Below the pieces are notes generated by a model. The model had not been told where the DNA came from and made no database searches. It saw only the letters and a list, made by a program, of their open reading frames with translations. Source: a virus (taxonomy: Duplodnaviria > Caudoviricetes). From it: a stretch of DNA of 64,000 bases. The stretch is from IMG/VR virus record IMGVR_UViG_3300035208_002115; one strand, 5' to 3'. A program made the translations under genes and the position numbers. Of the stretch, positions 1,224-40,504 are shown one piece after another. Each line of letters opens with the position of its first letter. Positions within the stretch are counted from its first letter, which is position 1.

Positions 1224-1439
1224 ATGGAAAATAATTTAAATATAATACCTTCTGATATATTTAATCAGAATAATGCGGTATCTTTTATAGATTGTTTTCA
1301 ACAATGTACATATCTTACAACTATACCAAGTACATTATTTGACCCAAATCATACTAAAAGATTAGAAAGAAAAGCGAAACTTGATGAAATATTCGGTCAT
1401 AGTTTAAATAAAAAATTAATATATGAAACATCCAAATAA
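1224..1439 (+). CDS. Small hypothetical protein with RKAKLDEIF motif
   Basis: ATG at 1224 just after the thyA stop is more plausible than 1173; carries the shared motif. Confidence 0.7.
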   Translation: MENNLNIIPSDIFNQNNAVSFIDCFQQCTYLTTIPSTLFDPNHTKRLERKAKLDEIFGHSLNKKLIYETSK

Positions 1440-1650
1440 ATTAATACATTATTTAGTTAGTGTTGGAAAGATTGTACCAGTCGGTTCACCTAACTATGCC
1501 AGTCAACAGATTACATATCTTACTGAAGATAAAAAATGGGGTGGCAATCTCAATTTAACAAACATTGGTGAAGTTATTTATTATATGACAGATGAAGAAA
1601 TAATGTCGTTTGTTAAATCTATGAGGAAAAAGAAAACATCAACAGAATGA
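1423..1650 (+). CDS. Hypothetical protein
   Basis: Tightly packed co-oriented ORF with ATGA overlap to the next gene. Confidence 0.65.
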   Translation: MKHPNKLIHYLVSVGKIVPVGSPNYASQQITYLTEDKKWGGNLNLTNIGEVIYYMTDEEIMSFVKSMRKKKTSTE

Positions 1651-1880
1651 CATACTCAGAATATATAGTAGAGCATCTTGATAATTCAATTGCATATGCT
1701 GAATATATTACTGAACAATTAAACAAACCATCATCATTAGACCCACACTATAAAGAGAAAAAACTTAGAGAGGTAAGACAAAAAAAGATAAAGGAAATTT
1801 TGGGTGAAGATGCTGATGGTATATTGGTTGAATCTATGAAAGATTCCAATGACATAAAAAAAATTGATATATGGTTTTAA
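1647..1880 (+). CDS. Small protein with YxEYIxE repeat and RQKKIKEIL motif
   Basis: ORF track; internal repeat YSEYIVE/YAEYITE. Confidence 0.7.
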   Translation: MTYSEYIVEHLDNSIAYAEYITEQLNKPSSLDPHYKEKKLREVRQKKIKEILGEDADGILVESMKDSNDIKKIDIWF

Positions 1881-1896
1881 TTTAAAATAAAAATAT

Positions 1897-1904
1897 TAAA
1901 TTTG
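1897..1904 (+). promoter_or_regulatory. Bacteroidota-type -7 promoter element (TAAATTTG)
   Basis: Matches TAnnTTTG, intergenic, upstream of 1948. Confidence 0.45.
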
Positions 1905-1947
1905 GAGTCTAAAAATATTAATCAGTTAAAACTTAAAACTTAAAACC

Positions 1948-2517
1948 ATGTATTTTATAATTTCTTTATTGCTTTGTAGTGTGTTATTTACCGCATCCAC
2001 TATATTAAAAACTTTTACAACTTCGGATGAGTTTGCCACATTCTTTTTAATTCTGCAAATAATATTCGTTGTCGCATTTTTTGTTTTTCTTATTGTGATG
2101 GTGTTTTATAATCTTGATTGGCATAGAGCATATAAAAAAATATACAATAAAATAAATAAAATAAAAAAAGAAATTGTATTAAGTGAAGCAAAATATAAAG
2201 AATTAAGTGAGTATTATAATAAATGTATATCTGATGGATTTCCGACTTTAGAGAAAGATTTGTTTTCGAAAATTGCAGATAACCAACCAAAAGAATTAAT
2301 TGCTTTATTACAAAATTATCCTGAATTACAATCATCTAAGCTGTATTCTGATATGACAACATCTGTGTCACATTTAATTAGCAGCATTTACATTAAAAAG
2401 AATGAATTATATGAAAATCATGAAAAATTAGAAAATATTCACTGTGATGGTTGGATTTTAATCAAACCCAAAAATTATGCTGGATTGTTGACCGAAGAAT
2501 TACATGATAAAAAGTAA
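1948..2517 (+). CDS. Membrane protein (2 N-terminal TM helices + coiled coil)
   Basis: Two hydrophobic stretches followed by a helical soluble domain. Confidence 0.75.
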   Translation: MYFIISLLLCSVLFTASTILKTFTTSDEFATFFLILQIIFVVAFFVFLIVMVFYNLDWHRAYKKIYNKINKIKKEIVLSEAKYKELSEYYNKCISDGFPTLEKDLFSKIADNQPKELIALLQNYPELQSSKLYSDMTTSVSHLISSIYIKKNELYENHEKLENIHCDGWILIKPKNYAGLLTEELHDKK

Positions 2518-2693
2518 TGGCTAATAAAACTACTATAAAATTAAAAGACCTTAAAAAGGTTTTGGGTGAAATGCCCAAGGACAAGATAGAGTTAAATAAT
2601 AATTCTTGGGGCGATGTTAGGATTCATTACAAAGAAGTAGTAGAAGTTAATTCTATTATGTACCATGTTAATAACTATTTAAATAATGTTTAA
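2517..2693 (+). CDS. Small hypothetical protein (58 aa, not in ORF track)
   Basis: TAATG stop/start overlap; MANKTTIKLKDLKK...; fills the gap exactly. Confidence 0.6.
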   Translation: MANKTTIKLKDLKKVLGEMPKDKIELNNNSWGDVRIHYKEVVEVNSIMYHVNNYLNNV

Positions 2694-2695
2694 GT

Positions 2696-2962
2696 ATGGA
2701 AGATAAAGACATTTCAAAAATATTTGATTCTATGTATTTTGATACATTTATATATTCTGATTATATGGATAAGATAAAAGATTTTTCTAATTTTGAATTT
2801 TCTAATCCAGATGTCATAGAAAATTTCAATAAAGTCATGTCTAAATTGTTGATTGAACGTAAAGAATATAAAAAACAAGTTGTTTTTTCAGATGAAGAAA
2901 AATTAAGAGCTGAACGCAAACAAAAATTAGAAACAATTTTTGATAAAAAAGAATTAGTTTAA
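2696..2962 (+). CDS. Hypothetical protein with C-terminal RKQKLETIF motif
   Basis: ORF track; shared motif. Confidence 0.75.
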   Translation: MEDKDISKIFDSMYFDTFIYSDYMDKIKDFSNFEFSNPDVIENFNKVMSKLLIERKEYKKQVVFSDEEKLRAERKQKLETIFDKKELV

Positions 2963-2963
2963 A

Positions 2964-3119
2964 ATGTGTATGGCTGGTTCTACAACGTCTTGGGGTGATT
3001 CTGAAATTGATTTGAATAGTATGGAAAGAATCAAGAGAGAAGAACTTCGTAAAGAACGTAAAAATAAAATTGAAGAAATATTTGATATAAAGAAAAAAAA
3101 TCTTCTAAAAGATAAATAG
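2964..3119 (+). CDS. 51-aa protein with RKNKIEEIF motif (not in ORF track)
   Basis: Manual translation MCMAGSTTSWGDSEIDLNSMERIKREELRKERKNKIEEIFDIKKKNLLKDK. Confidence 0.7.
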   Translation: MCMAGSTTSWGDSEIDLNSMERIKREELRKERKNKIEEIFDIKKKNLLKDK

Positions 3120-3257
3120 ATGGGTTGTGCGAGTTATAGTCAAATTAATTTTAGAACCGAAGCTGAAAATGAGGCTATACGTAGAGAGAATCTTCGTAAA
3201 GAACGAAAAGCTAAAATTGAATATATTTTTGAGTTGAAAAAAGGAAAAAAATTATAA
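3120..3257 (+). CDS. 45-aa protein with RKAKIEYIF motif (not in ORF track)
   Basis: Manual translation MGCASYSQINFRTEAENEAIRRENLRKERKAKIEYIFELKKGKKL; paralog of the preceding ORF. Confidence 0.7.
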   Translation: MGCASYSQINFRTEAENEAIRRENLRKERKAKIEYIFELKKGKKL

Positions 3258-3268
3258 TTATAAAAATA

Positions 3269-3296
3269 AAAAGAGAGCTGAATTAGCTCTCTTTTT
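3269..3296. terminator. Bidirectional intrinsic terminator
   Basis: aaaagagagct-gaatt-agctctctttt between convergent genes. Confidence 0.85.
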
Positions 3297-3684
3297 ATTT
3301 TTTATTCTCTTTTTTATTCTCAAAATCATGAATCATCTCAATGATTTTATATTTTAATTCTTCTTTTCGGACGGGTTTTCTCAATACACCATCTATCTGT
3401 TTATCTTTTGATAAATCAACAATATCATAAGAGGTAACAGCTAAAATGGGTACATTCGGTGTCATATTTTTAATAGTGTTGGCTGCTTCTAACCCATTCA
3501 TAACAGGCATCATAATATCAGTTAAGATTATATCATAATGATTTCTAAAAGCTTTTGTGACAGCTTCAGAGCCATTCATAGCAATATCAACTTCAAATTT
3601 TTTATCCACTAACATAGCTTTGACCATTGTGATTACATTTAGGTCGTCTTCTACATATAATATTTTATAAATTCTTTCTTCCAT
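3295..3684 (-). CDS. Stand-alone response regulator receiver (CheY-like)
   Basis: ILYVEDD, DIILTDIMMPVMNG (phosphoacceptor Asp), AVTS, LRKP. Confidence 0.92.
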   Translation of the reverse strand: MEERIYKILYVEDDLNVITMVKAMLVDKKFEVDIAMNGSEAVTKAFRNHYDIILTDIMMPVMNGLEAANTIKNMTPNVPILAVTSYDIVDLSKDKQIDGVLRKPVRKEELKYKIIEMIHDFENKKENKK

Positions 3685-3691
3685 GACTATT

Positions 3692-4219
3692 TTAATAAAT
3701 TTTTATCAATTCTAAATCTTTAACGGCATCATAATCATCTATTTTATCAACTTTTACGTGAAAATCCACATTAGGGTTTTTCTTTTTTATATCTAAAAAT
3801 GTTTTTGAATTTAAAAATTCCTTTTCAACATCGTCTTTAGATAATTCACTTCTTGTTTTCATAGATAATATAACCCCCTTATCTGGTGCAGTTTTCCTAT
3901 TTAAATCTCGAATAATAATCCTATATAAACTTGTTGTAGGATTATATTTTTCAAATTTTTCAACCTTTTTTTTGTTTAACATATTCATAAAAGAATCCTG
4001 TAAGTCGGATATTCTTATTTCTAAATCAATATTAGGATTGTCTTTCTTAATTCTTAGAAATTCATGAGATTTTTTAAAATCTGTTTCTACTGAATATTTA
4101 TCATTTTTTCCAGTTACAGTGGTAGTTGTAATAGTATTAATTGGTTCATTTTTGTCATAAACCTCAATTCTATATAATTTATCATTCATAAGATATTCAA
4201 ATGTTTTTAAGTATTTCAT
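3692..4219 (-). CDS. Hypothetical protein with CTS-like N-terminus, internally duplicated
   Basis: MKYLKTFE; two repeats LYRI...FL.IKK.NPN.D. Confidence 0.75.
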   Translation of the reverse strand: MKYLKTFEYLMNDKLYRIEVYDKNEPINTITTTTVTGKNDKYSVETDFKKSHEFLRIKKDNPNIDLEIRISDLQDSFMNMLNKKKVEKFEKYNPTTSLYRIIIRDLNRKTAPDKGVILSMKTRSELSKDDVEKEFLNSKTFLDIKKKNPNVDFHVKVDKIDDYDAVKDLELIKIY

Positions 4220-4322
4220 AGTAGAGAACCTATTTTTTATTATATATAAAAATTATAATAATGAAATTTTATTCTAAAAAAATCGTATGTGTTAATACGA
4301 GTGAAAAAATAAAGAAATATAT

Positions 4323-4964
4323 ATGAAAGTATCGGTGATAATGGCTTCTTATTTACAATTTTATCAAGGATGTGCAAAAAATTCTGATAAAAAATTTTTA
4401 CGTGCTGTTAATTCATTTAAAAAACAAACATATACAGATTGTGAATTAATTATAATTAGTGATGGTTGCCAGATTACAAATACTTTATATGACCAACACT
4501 TCGCAAACGATAATAATATAAAACTCATAAGAGCAAATAAATATCCTACATATGGTGGGCTTCGTCAGGAAGGTTTACAAGCTGCCACAGGTGATATTAT
4601 TTGTTACTTGGATGCTGATGATGTTTTGGGAAAAACCCACATAGAAACAATTGTAAACCAATTTCCACAGGATACAGATATGGTTTATTATAATGATTAT
4701 TTGGTTATGAGTACTGATTTTAAAAAATTATTCACCAGAGATGTTGAACCAAGATGGGGTTCTATTGGTACAAGTTCTTTTGCCCATAGAAATTTTTATA
4801 CGGATAGATATAAAGATATGACCATTAAACCCACTTGGAAAGCTGGATACGGCCATGATTGGTTCTTTATGTTGAGTCTCGCTGGTAAAGGATTTCAATT
4901 CAGAAAATTGGAAAAAACACCTTCATATCTCGTATGTCACTGGGGTGGACAATCTGATTTTTAA
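4323..4964 (+). CDS. Glycosyltransferase family 2
   Basis: KVSVIMASY, ELIIISDG, GLQAATGDIICYLDADD (DxD), HDW. Confidence 0.9.
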   Translation: MKVSVIMASYLQFYQGCAKNSDKKFLRAVNSFKKQTYTDCELIIISDGCQITNTLYDQHFANDNNIKLIRANKYPTYGGLRQEGLQAATGDIICYLDADDVLGKTHIETIVNQFPQDTDMVYYNDYLVMSTDFKKLFTRDVEPRWGSIGTSSFAHRNFYTDRYKDMTIKPTWKAGYGHDWFFMLSLAGKGFQFRKLEKTPSYLVCHWGGQSDF

Positions 4965-4979
4965 AAAGTTAAAAGTTAA

Positions 4980-5534
4980 ATGGGGAAAAATATTGAAATA
5001 TGGTTGGATATACAAGATTTTGAAGGTGTATATCAAATAAGTAATTATGGTAGAGTTAAAAGTTTAGAAAGATTAATAATTCAAAAAGACGGAAAAACTA
5101 AATTAATAAAAGAAAATATATTAAAGGGTGGTATAGACAAAGATGGTTATATTATGGTTACTTTATGTCATTCTAACAAACAATATACAAAATATATCCA
5201 TAAATTAGTTGCAAAGCATTTTATAGAAAATGTTGATAATTTTATTCAAGTTAATCATAAAAACGGCAATAAAAAGGATAATATCTATACTAATTTAGAA
5301 TGGTGTGACGCTTCTTATAATATTAGACATGCATTGAGAACTGGGTTATTAATACCATTGAAAGGTGAAGAAAAATGTAATCATATAATCACTGAAAATG
5401 ATGTTATAGAAATAAGAAAAATGTGGAAACATTTAAATATTAAACAGCGTGAAATAGCTAATATTTATAATATAACACCGAAACATGTATGGAAAATAAT
5501 TCATAACCACATTTGGAAACACATAGATATTTAA
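4980..5534 (+). CDS. NUMOD4-HNH homing endonuclease
   Basis: W.DI..FEG.YQISNYGRVKS (NUMOD4); HKLVAKHF...VNHKNGNKKDN...NLEW (HNH); C-terminal HTH. Confidence 0.92.
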   Translation: MGKNIEIWLDIQDFEGVYQISNYGRVKSLERLIIQKDGKTKLIKENILKGGIDKDGYIMVTLCHSNKQYTKYIHKLVAKHFIENVDNFIQVNHKNGNKKDNIYTNLEWCDASYNIRHALRTGLLIPLKGEEKCNHIITENDVIEIRKMWKHLNIKQREIANIYNITPKHVWKIIHNHIWKHIDI

Positions 5535-5535
5535 C

Positions 5536-5877
5536 ATGCCAATAAAAAGTAAAAGTTGTAAGAATAAAGGTAAAAGGTTACAGAATGAAATAGTTAAACT
5601 TATTCTTGACTATTATCCTCAATTGACAACAGATGATGTTAAATCGAATATTGGTAGTGAAAATGGTGTTGATGTTCAGTTATCAACCGCAGCTAAAAAA
5701 TTGTTCCCCTATTCAATAGAAGCCAAAAACCAAGAAACAGCTAAAATATGGGCATGGCTGGAACAGTCCGAGAAGAATTGTCACCCGAACACCGACCCAC
5801 TTTTAATATTCCGAAGAAATAGAAGTAAAACATATGTAACACTAAATATTGAAGACTTTTTTAAATTATTGAAATAA
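5536..5877 (+). CDS. Holliday junction resolvase-like PD-(D/E)xK nuclease
   Basis: KGKRLQ, GVDV, SIEAKNQE, EQS, PLLIFRRNR. Confidence 0.8.
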   Translation: MPIKSKSCKNKGKRLQNEIVKLILDYYPQLTTDDVKSNIGSENGVDVQLSTAAKKLFPYSIEAKNQETAKIWAWLEQSEKNCHPNTDPLLIFRRNRSKTYVTLNIEDFFKLLK

Positions 5878-5902
5878 ATAATATATAAAAATAAAAACTC
5901 TT

Positions 5903-6187
5903 ATGAAATTATTGATGTGTTCAAAATGTAATGATGTTTTTAATTTGGGATATACACTTAAAACTTGTCAATGTGGAGTAACCAAAGGTAAATATTTATC
6001 TGATGATGAATCTAAAAAACATGGTATAGTTGAATATACTGATTCTGGTATCCCACTGGTCATTAAAAATAATTCTTTAGTTCATATTTTAAATGAAAAA
6101 GATGGTGACCAAGATGGTAAAAGTGTTATTTGTTTTGTGGCCTCAAATAAATCAACTTATTTCAGAAAAAATAATAGTATTGAATAA
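5903..6187 (+). CDS. Small putative zinc-binding protein
   Basis: CSKC...CQCG. Confidence 0.65.
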   Translation: MKLLMCSKCNDVFNLGYTLKTCQCGVTKGKYLSDDESKKHGIVEYTDSGIPLVIKNNSLVHILNEKDGDQDGKSVICFVASNKSTYFRKNNSIE

Positions 6188-6207
6188 AATAATTCGAATA
6201 TTATCGT

Positions 6208-6215
6208 TATTTTTG
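6208..6215 (+). promoter_or_regulatory. Bacteroidota-type -7 promoter element
   Basis: atcgtTATTTTTGta, same context as 47433-47447 atcgtTATATTTGta. Confidence 0.6.
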
Positions 6216-6220
6216 TATTT

Positions 6221-6356
6221 GTAAGGTAAGTTTAAATGTCTAAACTGTGAATAAAACTCTAAATTGTTTGATGAGATAACATCTAAAACTATCAACATAT
6301 TATATATGATAAATAGATTTATGAGAGACATACTCGGACATTTAAATCTTACCTTC
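6221..6356 (+). ncRNA. Putative structured RNA (sRNA or 5' leader)
   Basis: 6223-6240 pairs with 6337-6355 (18 bp, one bulge); inner stems; starts just downstream of TAnnTTTG. Confidence 0.55.
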
Positions 6357-6375
6357 TTTATTAAAAATATTTATT

Positions 6376-6891
6376 ATGATACCTATTAGGAGTGGTTTAG
6401 ATTTTTATAGTAATGCTATTAATAATAAAGCATTCTTAGTGCCTGTTAATCTTCCAAGTAAAGTCGTAGTATATTATTCCATATTATTAACATATTGTCC
6501 GTTGAGCGAAAAAAAGAAAACTCAATATACTAAGTTAGACCCTAATAAAAAAGCTGGTTTTTTATTTAAACACCTGTTAAAATGTGCTTATCATGTAAAT
6601 GTACCGAAACCTTTAATTGAAGATTTAATTTCAACAAAAAATAAATATGATTCAATTCAAAAATCCTATAAAAACGAAAACCTTGATAATAATACTTTAT
6701 TAATTGAAAAAATAAAAAAAAGTTCATTAAATGATATGATAGATGATGTTGAAACAATGTTAGAAAAAAGTAATTTAGTGAAATCATTTGAAGAAAAAAT
6801 AGGAGTGATGACCGATTCTATTTATTATAATACATCTCGTGAAAATAAAAGAAAAAAGAAATTAGAAGAAATTTTCGATATAAATAAATAA
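6376..6891 (+). CDS. Hypothetical protein, paralog A, C-terminal RKKKLEEIF
   Basis: Shares Y.PL.E.K...K.GF...CA...P...I.D..S with 6901..7344. Confidence 0.8.
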   Translation: MIPIRSGLDFYSNAINNKAFLVPVNLPSKVVVYYSILLTYCPLSEKKKTQYTKLDPNKKAGFLFKHLLKCAYHVNVPKPLIEDLISTKNKYDSIQKSYKNENLDNNTLLIEKIKKSSLNDMIDDVETMLEKSNLVKSFEEKIGVMTDSIYYNTSRENKRKKKLEEIFDINK

Positions 6892-6900
6892 TAGTTAAAA

Positions 6901-7344
6901 ATGAATGATTTTAAGATAGATATTATTAAGGATAACTATACTAAACCAGAAAAAAATATAGCTATTCATAATAACGCTAATTTATTTATAAAATGTTTTT
7001 CTAATGGTTCTCGTAAACTTATCGGTGAATTGATTGGTTATTATCCATTAACAGAAAGAAAATTAAAAATATTTCAAAATTTTACCTTATCTGAAAAAAG
7101 GGGATTCATTTCAAGATATATTATGGGGTGTGCAAATAAAGCTGGTATCCCAGATATTTACATAAAAGATTTTTTATCTTTGAAATATCGCCTACGAGTG
7201 GAAAAATATAAAATGTCTGAAAATAGAACATTATTAAAAACAAGAGTATTTAAAGAAGAATTGAAATTATTAAATGCTACATTACAACTAACAAGAAAAA
7301 CATCTATCCGAAAACGGAAATTAGATGAGATATTTTTCAAATAA
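6901..7344 (+). CDS. Hypothetical protein, paralog B, C-terminal RKRKLDEIF
   Basis: Shares the same conserved block with 6376..6891. Confidence 0.8.
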   Translation: MNDFKIDIIKDNYTKPEKNIAIHNNANLFIKCFSNGSRKLIGELIGYYPLTERKLKIFQNFTLSEKRGFISRYIMGCANKAGIPDIYIKDFLSLKYRLRVEKYKMSENRTLLKTRVFKEELKLLNATLQLTRKTSIRKRKLDEIFFK

Positions 7345-7367
7345 GTAAAAATTCATTTTAATATATA

Positions 7368-7402
7368 AAGGGTGTATTCAGTTTATCTGGATACACCTTT
7401 TT
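7368..7402 (+). terminator. Intrinsic terminator
   Basis: ggtgtattcag-tttat-ctggatacacc followed by a T tract. Confidence 0.85.
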
Positions 7403-7457
7403 GTTTTCTTATGGATTCTAAAAATTTTATATATAACTAAAAATTTAATTAATATTT

Positions 7458-10073
7458 ATGGCTACACCATTGTATAAGAGCATGAAAAATAAGGGTATAA
7501 GTTTTATGGCTTTCCCTTCGGCTTCTGAAGATATAAATATATCCTTTCAAAATGCTGATTATAAGGTAGATTTTACAAAGTTTGTATTATTAAACTTACC
7601 AAAACAAGATTTAATTAATAATGTTTTAGATTTTAGAGAATCTTTCTATACAGTTGACCCTAATACACCGTCAAAATTTTCTGACCAGTTGATAGAATCA
7701 TTAAGAAATTATGTAGCCAATCATGATGTTAATATCAGACAAGCAAAGATAAACTCAAATACTGACTTTTATAATGTTGGTGAACCAAGGACTGTCGTAG
7801 AAAAAATATTTTGGAAGTGGTTAAGGAAAACTGGTGTTATTGATTTAGAACCAGCTTTACACAAAACAGATTGGGATAAAAATCTGACCGATTATAAAAA
7901 TGCGAACGAAGATACTGTATCAAATAGTGATTATTTTAGAAAATATTTATGGAAAGAAAGAGATGTTGTTCCTTATTCAGTTCCATTTATTGAATATATT
8001 GGTTCTGGTCAATTTCAGATAATTGTAAATGAACAATGTAAATTTAGAACAGGTGATATGGTGGTGTTTTCTGGTGATACTGGTGGACAAGTCTCTACGG
8101 GTATTACATATGAAATAATTTCTTTAACAGTTGGGACTGGAAATACAACATTAATAATGGAAGAACCATCTATTACAACAAGTTATACACCATCTAATTT
8201 AGTATTATACTTAAATTATAATAAAGTTATTCAATATATTGGTGAAATAAATGCAATGTCTAAAGTACAAAATTCAAAAAGTAATTTCACTGAAATAACA
8301 GCGTTCATACCCCATCAAGCTGGACAAACACCAACTATTTTATTTGATATCGATAGTGATAATAATTACAGACCAACGATGGAATATCCAATTTTACCGA
8401 GTGATATACAAAGTGAGATTTTAGGTGCAGAAAATTTAAATTCACCCATCAGAACAAACCCAGGGAATTATGCTGGTTCTTTCTATGGACAATTCGATAC
8501 AACAGATAAAAATTATGTTACAAGTAATGGTGATGTTTTAAGATTATCTGGTGATTATTATGGTGTAAAACTGACAAATAATGTCGGGTTAGATGCTGAA
8601 GAATATTTTGAAAAGTTAGATGATTTCGATTCTACTAATATAGATGGTTTAGTTTTAGATTTTACAACAAATCATTATTTGAAAATGAATCTACCAGATT
8701 ATATTTCGAAAAACTTTGATGAATTTAATGCTATGCCATTAAATGGTGAAGCACCAAACGATTTTATGTTTAATGCTATATTGTGGTATTATACGGTTGA
8801 CGATGGTGCTGGTAATATAACTTCTAATCTTTATGGTATATCATTTTTAAATAACCCAGAAAATGATGATGATGACAGTGACGTAGAAAACACATTAATT
8901 ACACCATATAAAAAATATGTTTCTAATGGTGAACAAGATGGTTTATCTTATAATTTTGATTTAAACCTAACATTTGAAGTTGATAATGATATGGTGTCAC
9001 CAAATTTCGACCCAACCGCAATTCATAATTTGTTTGGATTTGAGTTATATAATAATGTAATAAGCACTCTTGGTAAACTTCAAGAGAATTTTATAAATAT
9101 ATCGAATCAATTTGTTAGAATAAATAGTGAATTAAATGATATAAGAAGTTTGGTTTATTCTCAAACTGATTTGGATTATATTAAATTACGTTTAGCTAAT
9201 CTGGAAGAATTATTACAATTGTATCAGACAAATCAACTTGTAAATTCAGAAACTGCGGAAATAGAAGTGGATTATACTGGTATCTACCCAGCAGTGAGTG
9301 TTAATGTTATTGATTTAGAATTTAAAGATATTGAAACCGTTTCAACTTCAACCATTTATCTTTATAATGTGACTAATAGTGCTACCACCGCTAATAGTTA
9401 TAATATAATTGTACCGACTCACAATAAAAAATTATTATACATAATAAATGATGATTTAAACGGTGTTGATTTACCGTTAAAAGTGGTATTGAATAACGAT
9501 TTAAAATATAAACAGGTATTAGATATTTTAATTACGCCTAAAAAGGCTTTATATAGTAAGAAACTTACCGTTTCGATGAATTATGACAACGGGGTTGATG
9601 GTATTATTGAAACAGACTTGATAACAGATATCGATATGCCAATTGATTTGAAAACATATAATCAGACAAATTCAGCCGTTACATATAATAGAACGTATTA
9701 TTCAACCGCTTCTGTTCACCAATATGCTGAATTAGTATTACCAACTGGTGTTACATATGACCAAACTGTTTTATATACAGCATCGAGTAATTTTTATGAA
9801 GTAGGTGAATATGTGTATATAAGTAACTTTTTCTTTTATAGTGGAACGAGTATAATGGATTATAGTGGTTTATACCAAGTTATTGATTCTAAACAACCTT
9901 ATATTATTATAAATTTAAATACTAATGGCATCACATTAACTGGTATACCAAGAATAAGTTTATATAAAGGTTTTAAAATTTCAATATTAAGAATAACTGA
10001 TATTGATGCTATTACTGGTGTTGACACATCGTCAATATTAGATAGATATCTAATTGAAAAAGAAATAATTTAA
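7458..10073 (+). CDS. Large virion structural protein (probably baseplate/tail associated)
   Basis: 871 aa, acidic and beta-rich, upstream of the gp6-like gene, preceded by TTATATATA. Confidence 0.6.
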   Translation: MATPLYKSMKNKGISFMAFPSASEDINISFQNADYKVDFTKFVLLNLPKQDLINNVLDFRESFYTVDPNTPSKFSDQLIESLRNYVANHDVNIRQAKINSNTDFYNVGEPRTVVEKIFWKWLRKTGVIDLEPALHKTDWDKNLTDYKNANEDTVSNSDYFRKYLWKERDVVPYSVPFIEYIGSGQFQIIVNEQCKFRTGDMVVFSGDTGGQVSTGITYEIISLTVGTGNTTLIMEEPSITTSYTPSNLVLYLNYNKVIQYIGEINAMSKVQNSKSNFTEITAFIPHQAGQTPTILFDIDSDNNYRPTMEYPILPSDIQSEILGAENLNSPIRTNPGNYAGSFYGQFDTTDKNYVTSNGDVLRLSGDYYGVKLTNNVGLDAEEYFEKLDDFDSTNIDGLVLDFTTNHYLKMNLPDYISKNFDEFNAMPLNGEAPNDFMFNAILWYYTVDDGAGNITSNLYGISFLNNPENDDDDSDVENTLITPYKKYVSNGEQDGLSYNFDLNLTFEVDNDMVSPNFDPTAIHNLFGFELYNNVISTLGKLQENFINISNQFVRINSELNDIRSLVYSQTDLDYIKLRLANLEELLQLYQTNQLVNSETAEIEVDYTGIYPAVSVNVIDLEFKDIETVSTSTIYLYNVTNSATTANSYNIIVPTHNKKLLYIINDDLNGVDLPLKVVLNNDLKYKQVLDILITPKKALYSKKLTVSMNYDNGVDGIIETDLITDIDMPIDLKTYNQTNSAVTYNRTYYSTASVHQYAELVLPTGVTYDQTVLYTASSNFYEVGEYVYISNFFFYSGTSIMDYSGLYQVIDSKQPYIIINLNTNGITLTGIPRISLYKGFKISILRITDIDAITGVDTSSILDRYLIEKEII

Positions 10074-10074
10074 A

Positions 10075-10734
10075 ATGAATATATCTTTAGAGAACATACA
10101 AAAAATTATAAAAGAATTGTTCGATGAATCTAAAGTAACGTCAGTCGAAACAGTGTATGAGAAAACTGATGATGGAAAAGGTTTTAAAGTTGTCATATTT
10201 ATTCATAATTTATTTTATAATAAATCAAATATAATTTATAGTAAATTATTATTTGTTGTTGATGACCAGAAAGTGAATTTATTGAATAATCATTTTACAT
10301 ATTTATATGATATAAATTGTGATTACAGGCGAGTCAATTTTAAGGATTTAGATGAATTGGAATCTAAATTAAAAAAAGTTTTTTTAACCAGATTGTTCGG
10401 AAACGATTTAAAATTATTATCGGATATTATGACTGCGCCGGGCACGTTGATTGATAAGTGGTTTAAAGATAATGAATTGAGTGAGTATAATGTATATAGT
10501 TTCAAATATGAACCAAAAATAAAAGTAATGCCTTGTGAAAACCTTTTTTTCACCTTTGTTTTAAATCTCAATAATAAGGATATTATTGAAATTTTACTTA
10601 TTAAAATAAGCAAAACAGAATATAGTTTGAAATTTAAGTGTAATGATATTATAAAGGATTCAACTATACAAAATTTAAACGATTTCGTAAATGAAACCGG
10701 GATTTATATTAAAGAAAATATAAAAAATAATTAA
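10075..10734 (+). CDS. Hypothetical protein
   Basis: In the structural operon. Confidence 0.75.
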   Translation: MNISLENIQKIIKELFDESKVTSVETVYEKTDDGKGFKVVIFIHNLFYNKSNIIYSKLLFVVDDQKVNLLNNHFTYLYDINCDYRRVNFKDLDELESKLKKVFLTRLFGNDLKLLSDIMTAPGTLIDKWFKDNELSEYNVYSFKYEPKIKVMPCENLFFTFVLNLNNKDIIEILLIKISKTEYSLKFKCNDIIKDSTIQNLNDFVNETGIYIKENIKNN

Positions 10735-10741
10735 TAAATGA

Positions 10742-29317: not shown

Positions 29318-29393
29318 TACTTAGATTTAGATTAATAATAAACAGACAAAGTTATTAAAAAATAATATATTAACAAATATTTTAACAAATATT

Positions 29394-29678
29394 TTAATCT
29401 TCTTTAAAAATATCTCTAATTTTACTTCTTCGGGCTAATTTAAGAGCATCTTTTTCCCAATCCACCTTATCTTTATAGTGTTTGCCGTTTATATAATATT
29501 GATTAGTTCCAGTATTTTTGTGGTATAATATAGCAGCATCAAAAATATTATGATATTCACCGTTAAATTTGGATTCTATTCTATCTGTAAATCTTATTTT
29601 TATTATCTTATTTTGATAATCTTCAAAAAACCATTCATCTAATTTATACTTCTCTATTTGATGTTGTTCAAGACTCAT
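29394..29678 (-). CDS. Hypothetical protein with C-terminal RRSKIRDIF motif
   Basis: G.YH....AAI...G..QYYING (phage repeat-like); shared motif. Confidence 0.75.
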   Translation of the reverse strand: MSLEQHQIEKYKLDEWFFEDYQNKIIKIRFTDRIESKFNGEYHNIFDAAILYHKNTGTNQYYINGKHYKDKVDWEKDALKLARRSKIRDIFKED

Positions 29679-29891
29679 TTAAAAAGTTATTTGATTTGTG
29701 AAAGCAGTGATTAATTTATTAATAAATGTGCCAGCTATATGTCCATAGAAAGCTGGAAACAGTAACAAAGATAAAATAAATAAAAATAAAAATATTTTAA
29801 ATTTATTCTTATTAAATATTTTCAATAAATTGGGTTTATCGAATGACTTGTTCATTCGTTCTTTTTGATATTTTAATCTTTGGTCATCCAT
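29679..29891 (-). CDS. Small membrane protein
   Basis: One TM helix. Confidence 0.6.
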   Translation of the reverse strand: MDDQRLKYQKERMNKSFDKPNLLKIFNKNKFKIFLFLFILSLLLFPAFYGHIAGTFINKLITAFTNQITF

Positions 29892-30022
29892 TGTAACTAT
29901 TTTTATGTTTATATATTTCTAAATGTAAATTGTTTTATTTATAGAGCAACAATCTCAATTCTTTGTAGATATTTTTTAATATATACAAAAGAAATTGTTC
30001 TATAAAAATATTTATATTTTTC

Positions 30023-33718: not shown

Positions 33719-33741
33719 ATTTAAAAAAGAAAACATATAAA

Positions 33742-34863
33742 ATGACAAAATTAGTAAAAGGTGCAAGAATTTTAATAAAAAGAAGCGATACCACTGGTAT
33801 ACAACCGACTGTACCTGCTATTGAAGACCACACTTTAGGTTGGTTGGATACAGACATATATAAGGGGGAATTCTTTCTTAATATGGAAGATTATAGATTA
33901 TGGACAAGAACTAATACTGGGATAACCGAAATTCCAGTAATAGACCCCATCAGTGGAAAAATTAAAGTTTCCAATTTACCAAGTTCAATACTTGGTGCTG
34001 TAATATATCAAGGCACATGGAATGCAAGTACAAGTAATCCACCAACAACAGTACCAGCGAATGGGTGGTATTATATTGTTAATGTGTCTGGTACTACTAA
34101 TTTAAATGGGATAAATGAATGGCAAATAGGTGACTGGGCTATTTTCGCTGGTGAACCATCCAGTGGTGGTACTTGGGGTAAGGTAGATAATAGTAATAAT
34201 TTAACTGCTACTGAAATTACTTATAATAATCCATCATACCCAGCTTATACTACTGTAAATGCAGCATTAGACGGTTTATTGTATGTATTACCTGTTGTTA
34301 CAGCGACCATAAATACACCATCTGGTGGCGCAGTTGAAATAGGTTCAACGGTTACATCAATTGTTGTTGGTTGGTCAACTAATAAAATCATGTCGTCTGT
34401 AACTATTACTGGTACGGGTGCGCCAGTAACAAATTATGCGCCAGCAACATCAGGTACAATACCAATAAATAGTCTTAGTTTAACTACTAATACTACATAT
34501 ACTATGCACTGTACTGATTTGGAATTAGCTACGTCAATAGCAAATGCGATTGTTTATTTTAGATATTCAAGATATTGGGGAGTTGGTACATTGACTTCTA
34601 TGAACGATGCTCAAATAAATGCACTATCTTATGAATTATCAACTACGAAAGTCAAAACTATAACTTATGTGTGTAGTAATCAATATTTTTATTATATATA
34701 TCCAGTAGCATGGGGTACAGCTACATTTACCATTGGTGGTATTGAAAATGTACCTATTGTTTCGACTATAACACATATAAATGGTAGTGGTAATAGTGCT
34801 TCATATTATTTTTATAGAAGTGCCAACTTACTTAATGGTAGTATTACAGTTGTGATAACTTAA
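33742..34863 (+). CDS. Tail/fibre-associated structural protein
   Basis: GEFFLN, YQGTWNAS, Thr/Gly-rich beta structure; in the fibre cluster. Confidence 0.65.
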   Translation: MTKLVKGARILIKRSDTTGIQPTVPAIEDHTLGWLDTDIYKGEFFLNMEDYRLWTRTNTGITEIPVIDPISGKIKVSNLPSSILGAVIYQGTWNASTSNPPTTVPANGWYYIVNVSGTTNLNGINEWQIGDWAIFAGEPSSGGTWGKVDNSNNLTATEITYNNPSYPAYTTVNAALDGLLYVLPVVTATINTPSGGAVEIGSTVTSIVVGWSTNKIMSSVTITGTGAPVTNYAPATSGTIPINSLSLTTNTTYTMHCTDLELATSIANAIVYFRYSRYWGVGTLTSMNDAQINALSYELSTTKVKTITYVCSNQYFYYIYPVAWGTATFTIGGIENVPIVSTITHINGSGNSASYYFYRSANLLNGSITVVIT

Positions 34864-34881
34864 AAAAAGAAAATTATATAA

Positions 34882-36924
34882 ATGGCAAAAAATACAGGAA
34901 CATTAGTTGTTGATACTATTAAGACATATGACGATACAGATAAATATGCTGTTGTCAATTCGAGTGATATCAAAGGTGGACATCATGTTGTAGATTATGA
35001 TACTGATAGAAATAATTTAGTATCAACTTACCCATTACGTACCGAGACTGGTATGTTGGTTACTGTTAGGTCATCGTCTGATAATGGTAATCGAATGACA
35101 ACGTATCAACTTAGTGGTACGACATGGGTTAATTATGCCGATTACTTGACCGATGTAGCCAATATTTGGAAATCAGGGGCAACTGGTAATATATGGTATG
35201 CCCCACCATCGGGTAATGTGGGTATTGGAATAACTGGGGCTTATATAACTGGTAAATTGACTGTTTTTGGTCAAAGCCATTTTTATGGTATAAGTGATTA
35301 TAGATTTACCATCGACCCAACAAATGCTGCTATTTATAATTATGATACATCATTACTAATAATTGGGGCAATGCGAATTGGTAATAATACATCCAATACA
35401 GGTTTGATTATGAGACCAGATTTAGGTGATAAGATTGGTATAAATATAGATATTCCCACAACGACTCTTGATATTAATGGTAAAACTACTATTAGAGAAC
35501 AACTTATTATAGATTATAGTGCGACTGGGGGTGTAGATACTTGGAATAAATCAGGTTTACTAATTAAAAATAATAATGTTACCCCAAGTGAAGTTAGTGT
35601 TGCTTTTCAAAACATATCCACAGGTTCAAACTATTGGTTCACAGGATTAAATGAAAGTTCAATTTATCAAATAATATATGGTACGTCTTATGCTGGTACT
35701 TCATTTTTTGAAATTAATACATCTGGACTGGTTACTATTAATAATTCTTTAACTGTTAATAGTTCTATAAATTTAAATACTAATACCACTTTATCGGATG
35801 GTACAATTAATGTTGGTACAACATCAAGAGCAGGTAACTCAGTTATAAGAGCAAGAACTAATGATAGTTATATATCTGGGTTTGAAGCATATGGAAATGG
35901 AGCTGGTACAGGATATTTATATGTTGGTGAAAGTTCAACTTATGGTGGCGGTGTACTTTTTAATGGTGATGATGTACCGGGAGCGATTGACCCAGTAAAT
36001 TGTGTTCTATATTATAGAAGAAGTGCTGGTGTAGATTCAACTGTTTTTTATTATACTCAAAACGCCAACCATGTATATTTTAACGGTCATATTTACTTTA
36101 ATGCTTCAAATACATCAAATATTTATCATAATATCCCAACATACGGTATAAATATGAGAGGTGGTCTTGGTCTTAATGGGAGTTCTGGGCAACAAGGGTT
36201 TGGTTCTGGTTCTATAATTTTATACACTGGGCAAGGTGGTACTGGTGGTGAGGATTTGTCTACTCCAACATATGGACTTGATGGTGGTGATAGTGGTGCT
36301 GTTTCTTTGTACACTGGACAAGGTGGTACTGCTGGTGGAACTGCGATTGGATATAGTGGTGATGGTGGTGATAGTGGAGATTTAAATATTTATACTGGTA
36401 ACGGTGGAACTTCTGTTGGACATTATGGTGGTAGTAGTGGAAATATTAACATGTATACTGGTATTGCTGGTTCTGGATATTATACAGGGTCTTATGGTGA
36501 TATAATACTTCAATATTCATCAATTGCCAGAGGAAACGTTTTAATAGCTACTAATTCAAACCCAAGTAATAGACGTTTAAAAGTAAACGGTATTGGTGAA
36601 GCTACTGACTGGATTGCAATATCAGATATAAGAGAAAAAGAAAACATTATTTCTTTTGATAATGCACTTGATAAAGTGATGAAATTAAATCCAGTATATT
36701 TTAATTTTATAAATGGTGATGATAAATCCAAAAAAATTGGATTAATTGCACAAGAAGTTGAGGTTATTATACCTGAATTAATTCCACCAACAATAGGTGA
36801 TTCTACAAAAGGTGTTAGTTATAATAACCTAAGTGCGGTCTTAGTTAAAGCTATACAGGAACAAAATCTCATTATAGATAATTTAAAAGAAGAAATAGAA
36901 AAATTAAAAACAAAAATTAATTAA
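34882..36924 (+). CDS. Tail fibre with C-terminal intramolecular chaperone (peptidase S74)
   Basis: GNVGIG repeats, Gly-rich LYTGQGG repeats, SDIREKENI...IGLIAQEV...LVKAIQEQ. Confidence 0.88.
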   Translation: MAKNTGTLVVDTIKTYDDTDKYAVVNSSDIKGGHHVVDYDTDRNNLVSTYPLRTETGMLVTVRSSSDNGNRMTTYQLSGTTWVNYADYLTDVANIWKSGATGNIWYAPPSGNVGIGITGAYITGKLTVFGQSHFYGISDYRFTIDPTNAAIYNYDTSLLIIGAMRIGNNTSNTGLIMRPDLGDKIGINIDIPTTTLDINGKTTIREQLIIDYSATGGVDTWNKSGLLIKNNNVTPSEVSVAFQNISTGSNYWFTGLNESSIYQIIYGTSYAGTSFFEINTSGLVTINNSLTVNSSINLNTNTTLSDGTINVGTTSRAGNSVIRARTNDSYISGFEAYGNGAGTGYLYVGESSTYGGGVLFNGDDVPGAIDPVNCVLYYRRSAGVDSTVFYYTQNANHVYFNGHIYFNASNTSNIYHNIPTYGINMRGGLGLNGSSGQQGFGSGSIILYTGQGGTGGEDLSTPTYGLDGGDSGAVSLYTGQGGTAGGTAIGYSGDGGDSGDLNIYTGNGGTSVGHYGGSSGNINMYTGIAGSGYYTGSYGDIILQYSSIARGNVLIATNSNPSNRRLKVNGIGEATDWIAISDIREKENIISFDNALDKVMKLNPVYFNFINGDDKSKKIGLIAQEVEVIIPELIPPTIGDSTKGVSYNNLSAVLVKAIQEQNLIIDNLKEEIEKLKTKIN

Positions 36925-36929
36925 TAATA

Positions 36930-38639
36930 ATGGCAGTTAATATAGCATTAGCTTTAGAACATGTAGATTTTAATAAGATTAACATAACTCTTGTTGATGG
37001 AATGTCCATTGACAAATTAAAAATAAGATATAATTGGATTTTCAATGCTTCCATTGAAGATGCTATAATTGGTGAAGATAACTACGGATTAGTATGGTAT
37101 TCTGGGAACTGGATATGCGGTGATTGGTATGACGGTACTTGGTATTCGGGAAATTTTGAAACGGGAACTTGGAGAAATGGAAGGTTTTATAGTTATAAAC
37201 TGAATAAATATGATGTTTTAAATGGTAATTTTAATATAATAGATAGGGGTAATCAATATTCTGTCATGGGAATTGGTGAAGGTTATGTTGAATGGGAATC
37301 TGGTGATTTTTATGGCGGTACATTTGGAACAAAGGTAATAGATTGGTCACTTTACACTCCATATGACCCAAATAATCCACAAGGAAATAATGATATTACT
37401 AATAATAGTGGTCAAACATGTGTGTGGAGAAATGGTAATTTTTATAATGGTGTGATTTTTAATTCTATATGGTGGGATGGTAACTGGTATAATGGTTATA
37501 TGGAAAACATTCAATGGATAAGTGGAAAATTTTATAATGGTGAATTTAATGGTTACATTTGGTATAATGGTACATTCTTAGGTGGGGATTTCATCAATGG
37601 TGAATGGATGAATGGTGTATTTACTACATTTAATGAAAATGTGAAATCGAGATTTGGTGTTGTTAAAAATCCTGAATCATTTATAGAAACTATATCAGTC
37701 AATGAGAATACTACTTTTGTTAAACCATTAACATATACAGTATTTGGTGGTGGTAATTTAACATGGTTAAATGGCACATACACTGGTTTAGTTCAAGTAA
37801 TTAATCAACAAATACATCAAAGTCGAAGTGTAAACTCATATATAACGAATTCGGCTGCGAATAGTGGATATACACAAACACTTTCTATAAATGGGTGGAG
37901 TTTTAATATACCCGAAACAGCAACAATAAATGGTATAGAAGTTTATATTTCTTTGTATGCATCTTATAAAGATTCAAGAACTTATAAAGTTTCAAAGGTA
38001 ACGTTATCAAAAACTATAACTAATAATCCATTACTTCAATCGAACAATTTAGCTGGTAATGAATTAGTGGATGTATATCCGAGTGGTTCACCTTGGCCTC
38101 CACTGTATTATAATTATTTTTATGGTAGTCCAACTAATACATGGGGTATGAGTTTTACACCTGAAGACGTAAATTCACCATTATTTTCAGTGAATTTTAA
38201 ACTTCTTAAAGATGTTACATTTTATAATATTTGTTATTTCGCTGGTTTGGTTGTTAATGTTTATTACACCACTGACGTGTCAACATATAATTATGAAAAG
38301 TGTACATGGAACAATGGTAATTTCAATAATGGTGAATTTCATTCTGGGTTAATTACAAATGCGGATGGAAGTATCACTGAATCTGGAAATCATAAAATTT
38401 CTATTTGGAATAATGGTAATTTTAATAATGGTAAATGGTATGGTGGGTCATTCAGAAATGGTACATTTAACAACGGTGAATTTTTAGCTGGATATTTTGG
38501 GACTGATTCATTTGCACCTACTTGGAATAATGGTCAATTTATTAACGGTTTCTGGCAGAATGGAGTATTTAATAATGGTGAATTCCATAATGGCATTTGT
38601 AAAAATATCGATATAAAAAATGGTAAACTGGGAGATTAA
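36930..38639 (+). CDS. Virion protein with W/F-x-x-G-x repeats and an inserted beta domain
   Basis: Three blocks of WxxGxFxxG repeats; repeat type shared with 21016..22782. Confidence 0.75.
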   Translation: MAVNIALALEHVDFNKINITLVDGMSIDKLKIRYNWIFNASIEDAIIGEDNYGLVWYSGNWICGDWYDGTWYSGNFETGTWRNGRFYSYKLNKYDVLNGNFNIIDRGNQYSVMGIGEGYVEWESGDFYGGTFGTKVIDWSLYTPYDPNNPQGNNDITNNSGQTCVWRNGNFYNGVIFNSIWWDGNWYNGYMENIQWISGKFYNGEFNGYIWYNGTFLGGDFINGEWMNGVFTTFNENVKSRFGVVKNPESFIETISVNENTTFVKPLTYTVFGGGNLTWLNGTYTGLVQVINQQIHQSRSVNSYITNSAANSGYTQTLSINGWSFNIPETATINGIEVYISLYASYKDSRTYKVSKVTLSKTITNNPLLQSNNLAGNELVDVYPSGSPWPPLYYNYFYGSPTNTWGMSFTPEDVNSPLFSVNFKLLKDVTFYNICYFAGLVVNVYYTTDVSTYNYEKCTWNNGNFNNGEFHSGLITNADGSITESGNHKISIWNNGNFNNGKWYGGSFRNGTFNNGEFLAGYFGTDSFAPTWNNGQFINGFWQNGVFNNGEFHNGICKNIDIKNGKLGD

Positions 38640-38692
38640 TATATAAAGATAAATATTCAGACAATATATTTGAAAAATCAATAAAAATAAAT

Positions 38693-39097
38693 ATGAAAAC
38701 TTTTTCTCAATACTATAATTTAAATGAAAATCTTGATGACCAATTAAAAGATAAATTATCTGAAAAATATTTATCATTAAAAAGAGGTGTATTATTATTA
38801 ATAGATGGTTCTTTGGATGAAAATCAGAAAAAAGAATTGGTTAACGTTCAAAATTATTTATCTGATATCGAAAAAAATGGCCTTGATAATGTAAAAATAA
38901 CTGGTTTGATTGAAGATGCAGATGTCCAGAATTTTTATTTAAAATATAAAAATGATATAGATACACTTTTAAAAGATAAAGGGTATTTTACAGATAAGAT
39001 AGCACCCAATGTTTATAGCTTATACGATATGATGTTAAACGGAACAAAAAAGGCTGTACAGTATGTTGTAGAAATATTAAATAATGAATTATTCTAA
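38693..39097 (+). CDS. Hypothetical protein with CTS-like N-terminus
   Basis: MKTFSQYYNLNE. Confidence 0.75.
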   Translation: MKTFSQYYNLNENLDDQLKDKLSEKYLSLKRGVLLLIDGSLDENQKKELVNVQNYLSDIEKNGLDNVKITGLIEDADVQNFYLKYKNDIDTLLKDKGYFTDKIAPNVYSLYDMMLNGTKKAVQYVVEILNNELF

Positions 39098-39678
39098 TGA
39101 AATATTTGAAACATTTTAAATTATTTGAAAATCATTTATATATGTTAAAATCTGGTTTAATTCGAGTTAAAAGATATTGTAAACCAGACACTATAAATAC
39201 AAATGAACTGAGAGGTGGTACGTGGTATTCATATATTAATGATGAACGTGCCGATAGATATAACCAGACTGATTCTAAAATAGGTGGTACAACACTTATC
39301 ACTGGTGAAATTGAATATCAGAAACCATTCGTTTTAACAAACACAAATTCTAATAACGTTTTATTTGATTTTCAATTATTTACTTTTATTGATATATTCA
39401 CAGAAGAAGATAAAGAATTTTTACTGAATATATCTTTTGAAAAAAATAAAATTAAGTTCATAAAAGAGAGTCTGAAATATGGGGTTATAGATAAAAAACA
39501 GTCTGAAATTATAAAAAAATTATCAGATTTTAATTCTTTAAATGTAATTGTTGATAACCTATTAGCTAAACGATTAAAAGAAAATAATAGAGATGTTTTT
39601 ATTCGTTTAGACCAAGATAACTATATATTCGAAGTATTTGATATAAATAATTTATTCCAACAGAAAACTATTTCTTAA
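39097..39678 (+). CDS. Hypothetical protein with CTS-like N-terminus
   Basis: MKYLKHFKLFE. Confidence 0.75.
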   Translation: MKYLKHFKLFENHLYMLKSGLIRVKRYCKPDTINTNELRGGTWYSYINDERADRYNQTDSKIGGTTLITGEIEYQKPFVLTNTNSNNVLFDFQLFTFIDIFTEEDKEFLLNISFEKNKIKFIKESLKYGVIDKKQSEIIKKLSDFNSLNVIVDNLLAKRLKENNRDVFIRLDQDNYIFEVFDINNLFQQKTIS

Positions 39679-39730
39679 ATTGTTCATATAAGATATAATT
39701 CATATTTTTGTTTATATTTTATAACCTCTT

Positions 39731-40504
39731 ATGTTTAATAAAGAAAAGATTAAAGAAGAATTAGATAATTATTTGGAATTCGATTCTTCTTTACTGTTCA
39801 AGGATACTGATTATTTGGTTATATTCGGTGGTAGTTTGAGAGATATTATATCAAAAAACACAATTAATGATATAGATATAATGTGTTTATCTCATTCTAT
39901 GCAAACTGCTATTGAGGTAATAACCGAACATGGATATTTTTTTATTGATTTATATACCAAGGATATTTTAAATATGTATGATGACTTACATGTTATATTC
40001 GAACCCAAAACATATATTAATTCTAAAGGTAAAAAAATACAATTCATCAGGCCAGCAAAAAATGATATTATATCGAGAAATATAATAGCTAATGATTTTG
40101 AATATATGGTTTTTTCTTTTATTAGTTTATTACAAAATGTGGATTTAAGCTGCTGTGGTATATTTTGGGATGGTGAAGAATTATATGAATCATACGTTGG
40201 TAGTGTTAGACAATGTGAAGAAAGAAAATTTATTGAACTTCCACATAATTCTATGTATAATCGTCATAGAATAGAAGATAGGAAAAGAAAAATGTTATAT
40301 GATAAAACATTCGATGAAATAGTAGAACGTGATTTATCTGATATTAAACGAGTAAGACTTTTAAAATTAAATGAAATACTTACTGAAGAAAAAAATATAG
40401 AGGAATATAAGATAAAAATTTCATACAATCAGAAAACTGAAAATGAAATTTTAGGTTATTTTGATAATAATTCTAAAATTGATATGGATGATTTACCTTT
40501 TTAG
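39731..40504 (+). CDS. Nucleotidyltransferase (CCA/poly(A) polymerase head-like)
   Basis: IFGGSLRDI...DIDI; NVDLSC; ends DDLPF. Confidence 0.8.
   Translation: MFNKEKIKEELDNYLEFDSSLLFKDTDYLVIFGGSLRDIISKNTINDIDIMCLSHSMQTAIEVITEHGYFFIDLYTKDILNMYDDLHVIFEPKTYINSKGKKIQFIRPAKNDIISRNIIANDFEYMVFSFISLLQNVDLSCCGIFWDGEELYESYVGSVRQCEERKFIELPHNSMYNRHRIEDRKRKMLYDKTFDEIVERDLSDIKRVRLLKLNEILTEEKNIEEYKIKISYNQKTENEILGYFDNNSKIDMDDLPF

Follow-up and report, generated by a model that had tools for sequence, protein, structure and literature searches.

Two described systems come closest to the element reported here. Diverse defence proteins of the T-even phages share "only a conserved CTS" (capsid targeting sequence; PMC3012670), a short and portable peptide that is the sole common feature of diverse and fast-evolving phage proteins, many of them acting against host defences, and the C-terminal RRKKAI of MuA is read by ClpX (PMC8138137), which makes it the tail of a phage protein read by a host hub. 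The subject of the present study is a stretch of 64,000 nucleotides (hereafter the window) from the virus record IMGVR_UViG_3300035208_002115 (Duplodnaviria; Caudoviricetes) in IMG/VR, in which an earlier note, made from the letters alone, had pointed out a helix of the form R-x-x-K-[LI]-x-x-I-[FL] on at least nine proteins. We call this helix the tag and number its residues from the arginine (Arg0), so that the lysine is Lys3 and the hydrophobic positions are 4, 7, and 8. By analogy, the T4 CTS can be regarded as the nearest relative of the tag in concept, and the MuA tail as the nearest in chemistry. Unlike the tag, however, the T-even CTS is N-terminal, is cleaved at L/I-x-E, and is placed on late proteins that are packaged into the head. 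The MuA signal and the tethers of AAA+ adaptors (PMC8138137) resemble the tag in having a basic block followed by aliphatic residues, but the MuA signal is the extreme C-terminus of one protein, whereas the tag is a nine-residue helix register, often with further residues after it, on about 170 proteins. No published description of an R-K-x-K-I/L-x-x-I-F/L motif was found in the literature. Large and rapidly evolving repertoires of unrelated effectors that share a short sorting motif are also represented by RxLR and PEXEL, the host-translocation motifs in effectors of eukaryotic pathogens, and by the C-terminal signals of type IV secretion effectors; these differ from the tag in organisms, positions, and machinery, and no translocon is evident here.

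The window corresponds to positions 413,370-477,369 of a single contig of 675,678 bp with 27% G+C, which is listed as 98% complete in the source collection. About 1,169 genes were called with 94% of the contig coding under the standard bacterial code 11, and an alternative genetic code is hence unneeded. Since the window encodes a baseplate hub (Phage_base_V and VanY), a tail fibre in which an endosialidase-chaperone domain is present, and a ribonucleotide reductase, the virus is a tailed megaphage. Its host is probably a member of Bacteroidota. For comparison, we used G001 (640 kb; terminal repeats present) and G002 (422 kb), two close relatives that come from the same metagenome, together with the public relatives, namely, the uncultured phages of 635-735 kb represented by LR756501, LR745206, and their kin. 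LR756501 (735 kb) is nearer to the present genome than LR745206 is (mean identity, 45% vs 41%), with 64 of the 77 strongly shared proteins scoring higher in the former.

The tag across the genome

When the strict pattern R..K[LI]..I[FL] was searched, it was found in 107 of the genes, against 1.69 ± 1.36 (maximum, 8) in residue-shuffled proteins (200 shuffles), and 103 of these 107 copies were located within 20 residues of the C-terminus, where 0.3 would be expected. The C-terminal enrichment is therefore far above chance when checked against composition-shuffled proteins, as the earlier note had proposed to do, and its count of at least nine carriers, all of which are present, turned out to be a large undercount. 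Indeed, with the relaxed pattern R..K[LIM]..[LIMV], the C-terminal copies amount to 174 genes (4.6 expected), and the internal copies stay at the level of chance (33 vs 26). About one gene in seven, or about 15% of the proteome, is thus tagged, and the tagged genes are scattered across the whole genome. An independent tool counting the pattern at the level of DNA gave 92 matches vs 13 in the reversed control. Carriers are mostly small: the tag is present in 26% of the proteins with 100-150 residues and in only 2% of those with more than 300 residues. The tag is followed by 0-17 residues (25 and 40 in two proteins); among the strict copies, a spacing of two residues is the commonest, and 9 of the 107 end exactly at the tag.

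The consensus can be written as [I/L/E]-R-K-x-K-[I/L]-[K/E]-[E/x]-I-[F/L], with Lys at position 1 in 60% of the copies, and Asp, Glu, or the end of the chain comes within three residues after the tag in 91% of the copies (35% expected). The basic residues at the positions 0 and 3 are not interchangeable; namely, C-terminal R..K was counted 172 times, as compared with 26 for K..K, 3 for R..R, and 6 for K..R, even though the proteome contains three times as much Lys as Arg. Since these combinations would be equivalent in terms of generic electrostatics or amphipathicity, a shaped binding site is the simplest reading of the preference. An unbiased scan with gapped patterns gave no second C-terminal tag in the present genome, in which DPYGEE, a motif discussed below, is also absent.

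The proteins that carry the tag are otherwise unrelated. When the tag was removed, BLASTP grouped the 174 bodies into 167 clusters and phmmer grouped them into 160, nearly all of which are singletons, so that the bodies are unrelated apart from paralog pairs, as had been supposed. Of 150 tagged proteins that were scanned against Pfam, only about a dozen gave a match, including Acb3 (an inhibitor of the cyclic-oligonucleotide-based antiphage signalling system, CBASS), ankyrin repeats, and an ABC-type ATPase, and in these as well as in a nucleotidyltransferase, the tag sits beyond the known domain as an appendix; in the Acb3 homolog, for example, the profile stops at residue 218, and the tag is found within the remaining 19 residues. 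The tag thus behaves as a short linear docking motif is expected to, being terminal or exposed and present on unrelated proteins above chance. In terms of the hydrophobic spacing (positions 4, 7, and 8), the tag is similar to the clamp-binding PIP (proliferating cell nuclear antigen-interacting peptide) box, Q-x-x-[ILM]-x-x-[FY]-[FY], of replication and repair proteins. Such a clamp-binding tail was rejected, however: Gln occupies position 1 in only 3-4% of the copies, an aromatic pair is lacking, and in the 5'-3' exonuclease, the only replication-type carrier that was traced, the relaxed match is not conserved and is taken for chance. A weak DNA_pol_B match also appears in the tally of carriers.

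Tagged genes are associated with one of two classes of promoters. TAnnTTTG, a Bacteroidota-type -7 element, marks a host-type, early class, and 63% of the tagged genes are located downstream of this element. The other class is marked by AATATATA, which was found in 123 of the 361 intergenic upstream regions (7.5 expected) and 20-40 nt upstream of about 198 start codons, those of structural genes included, and is probably a late promoter; in the window, it occurs upstream of 7458, 30023, 45722(-), 62157, and others. The tagged fraction is 23% in the TAnnTTTG class vs 9% in the AATATATA class.

The same genome has a separate, N-terminal label. The motif M-K-x-[I/L]-K-x-F-x-x-F-[I/L]-N-E is present at the N-terminus of 63 genes against 14.6 by chance, about 50 of them being real, and closely matches the T4 CTS, including the L/I-x-E cleavage site; the genes at 63448-63948 and 62157-62978 are its examples in the window. 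Of these 63 genes, 40 are behind AATATATA. The C-terminal tag is matched in only three, which look like false N-terminal matches, so that the two sets are disjoint, as the first reading of the window had it. Because this late-promoter N-terminal label exists separately and most genes with the C-terminal tag follow host-type promoters, capsid loading is unlikely to be the purpose of the C-terminal tag. Indeed, a CTS of the T4 type is N-terminal, ends in L/I-x-E, and is borne by late-expressed virion cargo, whereas Glu is found at position 6 in only 40-47% of the copies of the tag, and the majority of the tagged genes are in the TAnnTTTG class as described above.

Selection on the protein and respelling among relatives

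Codon usage and the comparison of orthologs locate the selection at the level of the protein. All six codons of Arg are used for Arg0 (AGA 42, CGA 23, AGG 17, CGT 11, CGC 5, CGG 5), with CGN over-represented and the third positions varying freely, and the codons for Ile, Leu, and Phe in the tag are also mixed. In 107 reciprocal-best pairs with G001, the tag is retained in 98, and the bodies are 57% identical, but Arg0 and Lys3 are each 93% identical, with 50 synonymous vs 3 replacement changes at Arg0 and 18 vs 2 at Lys3. The identity is 75-80% at the positions 4, 7, and 8 and drops to the level of the bodies (49-67%) at the x positions; the key positions are thus more conserved than their flanks, as in docking motifs. 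From the codon usage and the synonymous excess, it follows that selection acts on one face of a helix and not on nucleotides. The tag is under strong protein-level purifying selection while the bodies diverge, and the carriers are the fastest-evolving genes of the phage (median identity to G001, 59% vs 78%).

The tag is spelled differently in other lineages. In LR745206, about 130 genes are tagged with R-[D/E]-x-K-[IL]-x-x-[IL]-L, with Asp or Glu occupying position 1 in 64% of the copies and mostly Leu at position 8, and the orthologs of the tagged genes retain the tag. No RxxK tag was found in LR756501, the nearer relative, which has instead about 100 copies of [L/I]DPYGEExW in about 90 proteins (loci L039-L075). 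This peptide can be C-terminal (the chain then typically ends nine residues from the Pro of the motif), close to the N-terminus, or, in large proteins, interposed between domains. Like the tag, DPYGEExW is a portable peptide distributed over a whole proteome, and it occurs once on a homolog of an RxxK-tagged gene, which ends in DPYGEENWSE in LR756501; unlike the tag, it is acidic and aromatic instead of helical and basic, and it is not confined to one position in the protein. R..K[IL]..I tails were also noticed in other relatives of about 45% identity and in an AT-rich contig (about 98 kb) that belongs to a different phage, and no enrichment was detected in the cultured Flavobacterium phage MaF61 (1 match vs 2 in the control).

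In summary of the observations, the tag exists, is strictly C-terminal and modular, is associated with promoters of the early type, and has a different spelling in different lineages. If the tag co-evolves with a single reader, more than 100 genes would be expected to be respelled in concert, as they are, and together with the specificity for Arg and Lys, this respelling points to one specific reader instead of generic amphipathicity; on these grounds, we infer the existence of one reader. Such a change of spelling throughout the genome from one relative to another would then serve as a natural experiment in the co-evolution of a tag and its reader.

Proposed docking to a common partner and the alternatives

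We consider it reasonably probable that the tag is a portable C-terminal docking helix, by which its carriers are plugged into one common and sequence-specific partner. In the mechanism that we propose, the [I/L/E]-R-K-x-K-[I/L]-x-x-I-[F/L] helix, with an acidic residue or the chain end coming within three residues after it, is appended to about 170 unrelated proteins, which evolve fast and are for the most part small and expressed early; Arg0 and Lys3 are gathered with the hydrophobic residues at 4, 7, and 8 on one face of the helix as the recognition surface, leaving the positions 2, 5, and 6 free, and the common partner would be a protein of either the phage or its (probably Bacteroidota) host. 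Among the possible outcomes of docking, a proteostatic hand-over, in which the tag is a chaperone handle or a timed degron, and localisation to some structure in the infected cell are ranked highest, and a degron or a chaperone handle is held to be the most likely version on circumstantial grounds. A broader version, which we put forward as tentative, is that one lineage-specific reader, encoded by either the phage or the host, controls the sorting, stability, or timing of the whole early arsenal of accessory and anti-defence proteins, some 15% of the proteome, and that tag and reader co-evolve to such an extent that whole genomes switch their tag (RKxK to RDxK to DPYGEExW), in parallel to the N-terminal tag for capsid loading. 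If true, a sequence rule would become available to pick the early accessory and anti-defence repertoire from the unannotatable ORFans of megaphages, and a portable peptide could direct foreign proteins to the same destination. Also, were about 170 early proteins to be handled by one reader, this reader would be both a single control point and a vulnerability in the takeover of hosts by the largest known phages.

Several points weigh against docking to a single partner. Phylogenetic profiling for proteins present in the present genome, G001, and LR745206 and absent from LR756501 found no reader and no compelling candidate; a protein of 104 residues considered for this role (g1148) was rejected, because its family has more than 500 members spread over many smaller phages. 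The classes of promoters are noisy, being defined by short AT-rich motifs, and 37 of the tagged genes are in the late-like class. Furthermore, the helix may have descended from one ancestral gene, with the similarity among the bodies wholly lost, although common descent of the helix would still need a shared function. Of the docking tag originally proposed, what stands is a modular, protein-level element on unrelated proteins and appended to known domains, and recruitment to one hub is still suggested by the pattern of conservation and respelling, profiling having given no partner.

Proteostasis, a specific version of docking, is the most probable of the alternatives, and yet it appears rather unlikely; namely, an AAA+ unfoldase/protease or an Hsp70 co-chaperone, of either the host or the phage, would clear the early proteins on schedule or aid their folding. 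The basic block followed by a hydrophobic block near the C-terminus fits the composition of the ClpX signal of MuA (C-motif 2; PMC8138137), but ClpX C-terminal degrons are at the very end of the chain, as is the tag in only the 9 of 107 strict copies mentioned above, 0-17 residues and in two proteins 25 and 40 being found after it. That the carriers are early and the fastest-evolving is also consistent with this alternative. The phage has four J-domain proteins, and no Hsp70, GrpE, ClpP, or ClpX is encoded in its genome, so that the phage must rely on host machines. Furthermore, the few proteostasis genes that the tag-using genomes have and the tag-less one lacks include those for ClpS and a J-like protein; nonetheless, ClpS recognises N-termini and not C-terminal helices, and in G001, the J-like protein has HLD in place of its HPD motif. 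DnaK-binding cores disfavour acidic residues, which argues against a chaperone handle given the acidic residues at the positions 5 and 6 of the tag.

Amphipathic tails of the MinD type are C-terminal and combine Arg/Lys with Ile, Leu, and Phe, and the consensus and the helical model of the tag conform to such a C-terminal amphipathic helix with a basic flank, terminal as in MinD and FtsA; the tag could anchor these early proteins in the lipid of the inner membrane, with no protein reader involved. Binding to lipid, however, tolerates exchange between Arg and Lys as well as shifts of the register, and the identity of residues in such a degenerate helix is immaterial, whereas R..K prevails with 172 copies, Arg0 and Lys3 are not interchangeable and 93% conserved, and the fixed hydrophobic positions number only three. 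In LR745206, about 64% of the tags have an acidic position 1, which would further weaken the charge for anionic lipid, and we thus regard a lipid anchor as very unlikely. Less likely still is self-association of the helices into mixed oligomers or a condensate, for which the basic positions 0, 1, and 3 and the acidic positions 5, 6, and +9 to +11 could pair in an antiparallel manner and some microproteins consist almost wholly of the helix; against it stand a very short hydrophobic seam and ER/K-rich segments upstream that resemble single stable helices, not coiled coils. It is, finally, hardly conceivable that the 3' ends of these genes serve the next gene as a signal in nucleic acid or translation (an A-rich region for initiation, a promoter, or a reinitiation or arrest peptide) instead of encoding a protein tag. 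While the coding sequence of the tag is A-rich and overlap with the next start is found in 55% of the tagged vs 28% of the other small genes, the six Arg codons in use and the ratio of 50 synonymous to 3 replacement changes at Arg0 led us to reject a DNA-level repeat, promoter, or A-rich initiation signal. Also, the distance to the stop codon varies, and 23 of the tagged genes have no co-directional gene downstream.

Candidate partners and the nine copies in the window

The candidates given by profiling were mostly aminoacyl-tRNA synthetases, enzymes of RNA repair and of nucleotide, sugar, and NUDIX chemistry, and a peptide deformylase; the exceptions with a link to proteostasis were a ClpS homolog and a J-like protein of degenerate sequence, besides which a few unknowns were listed. 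When the J-like protein (g551), ClpS (g973), and the uncharacterised g994 were each co-folded with the microprotein of 45 residues carrying the tag, the score was 0.00 with the partner poorly folded, a result that speaks neither against binding nor in its favour. As a reader, g279 (216 residues) was rejected for its KxDG ligase motif, the FliS-like g809 for its absence from G001, the pair of MoxR and VWA proteins for its presence in all the genomes, the AAA protein g333 for the lack of a conserved N-domain, and the BCS1-like AAA protein g1072 for being unique to the present genome.

Some features of these and related proteins are worth recording. The ClpS homolog (G000:C1:573782-574078), found in G001 and LR745206 but not in LR756501, has intact residues in the N-degron pocket, and its gene is located inside an array of tagged genes. 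The four J-domain proteins (G000:C1:260804-261847, 159333-159866, 487287-487862, and 286921-287586) comprise a full DnaJ with a zinc finger, a membrane-anchored one, one with an unknown N-domain, and a degenerate one. The g1148 protein (G000:C1:668430-668744) is not assigned to any family in Pfam, and its counterpart in LR745206 (L099:2780-3475) is joined to a GrpE domain, close to a DnaJ gene. A protein of 432 residues (G000:C1:632267-633565) has a BCS1-like layout, i.e., an N-terminal membrane helix and a classical AAA domain, with no ortholog in the relatives compared. Also, a MoxR-like AAA ATPase and two VWA-like (DUF2201) proteins are encoded at G000:C1:184817-189010 and kept in all the relatives compared; one of these VWA-like proteins has a metallopeptidase-like N-domain and a long linker rich in Gln, Asn, and Gly.

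As regards the window itself, all nine peptides reported at the outset were confirmed to be in frame in their open reading frames (ORFs), which are on the + strand unless otherwise stated. Most had been described as lying within about 15 residues of the C-terminus; seven are indeed 2-14 residues from it, but the other two are at 25 and 40 residues. In addition, orthologs at 45-60% identity retain the tag. A small ORF ending in the tag (1173..1439, with an ATG at 1224) has RKAKLDEIF at nt 1368-1394 and the stop 14 residues on, and an ORF of 88 residues (2696..2962) has RKQKLETIF at nt 2915-2941, its ortholog in G001, 53% identical overall, having RKAKIEEIL. Two microproteins follow, and these are, as had been noticed, little more than the motif: one of 51 residues (2964..3119), with an ER/K-rich helix and RKNKIEEIF at nt 3057-3083, and its tandem paralog of 45 residues (3120..3257), with RKAKIEYIF at nt 3204-3230. 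This pair at 2964-3257 is a tandem duplication, G001 and G002 each having a single ortholog of 44-47 residues, and among the orthologs the N-terminus is variable and the segment L-R-K-E-R-K-x-K-I-E is invariant. The part of titrators of the partner, which the earlier note suggested for these minimal peptides, is a conjecture.

An all-helical protein of 171 residues (6376..6891) has RKKKLEEIF at nt 6850-6876, and a metagenomic ortholog with 67% identity overall has the final 18 residues unchanged. In the AlphaFold model of this protein (predicted local distance difference test, 74.6), the fold is all-helical, and the tag ends a terminal helix of 49 residues with a low-confidence tip. Its distant paralog of 147 residues (6901..7344) has RKRKLDEIF at nt 7309-7335. 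On the - strand, an ORF of 94 residues (29394..29678) downstream of a TAnnTTTG element has RRSKIRDIF at nt 29406-29432, the tag being identical in G001.

The two copies far from the end are those in an ORF of 77 residues (1647..1880), with RQKKIKEIL at nt 1776-1802 and the stop 25 residues on, and in the nucleotidyltransferase of 257 residues (39731..40504), with RLLKLNEIL at nt 40355-40381 and an extension of 40 residues ending in DDLPF. This end of the nucleotidyltransferase resembles the tail peptide of single-stranded-DNA-binding protein (SSB) and is kept in G001 but not in LR745206. As for the tags themselves, the ortholog of the former in G001 has RCEKIKEIF, and that of the latter is kept as RLLKLNEIF in G001 and as RDLKIDRIL in LR745206; because they are conserved in orthologs, both of these copies are counted as real.

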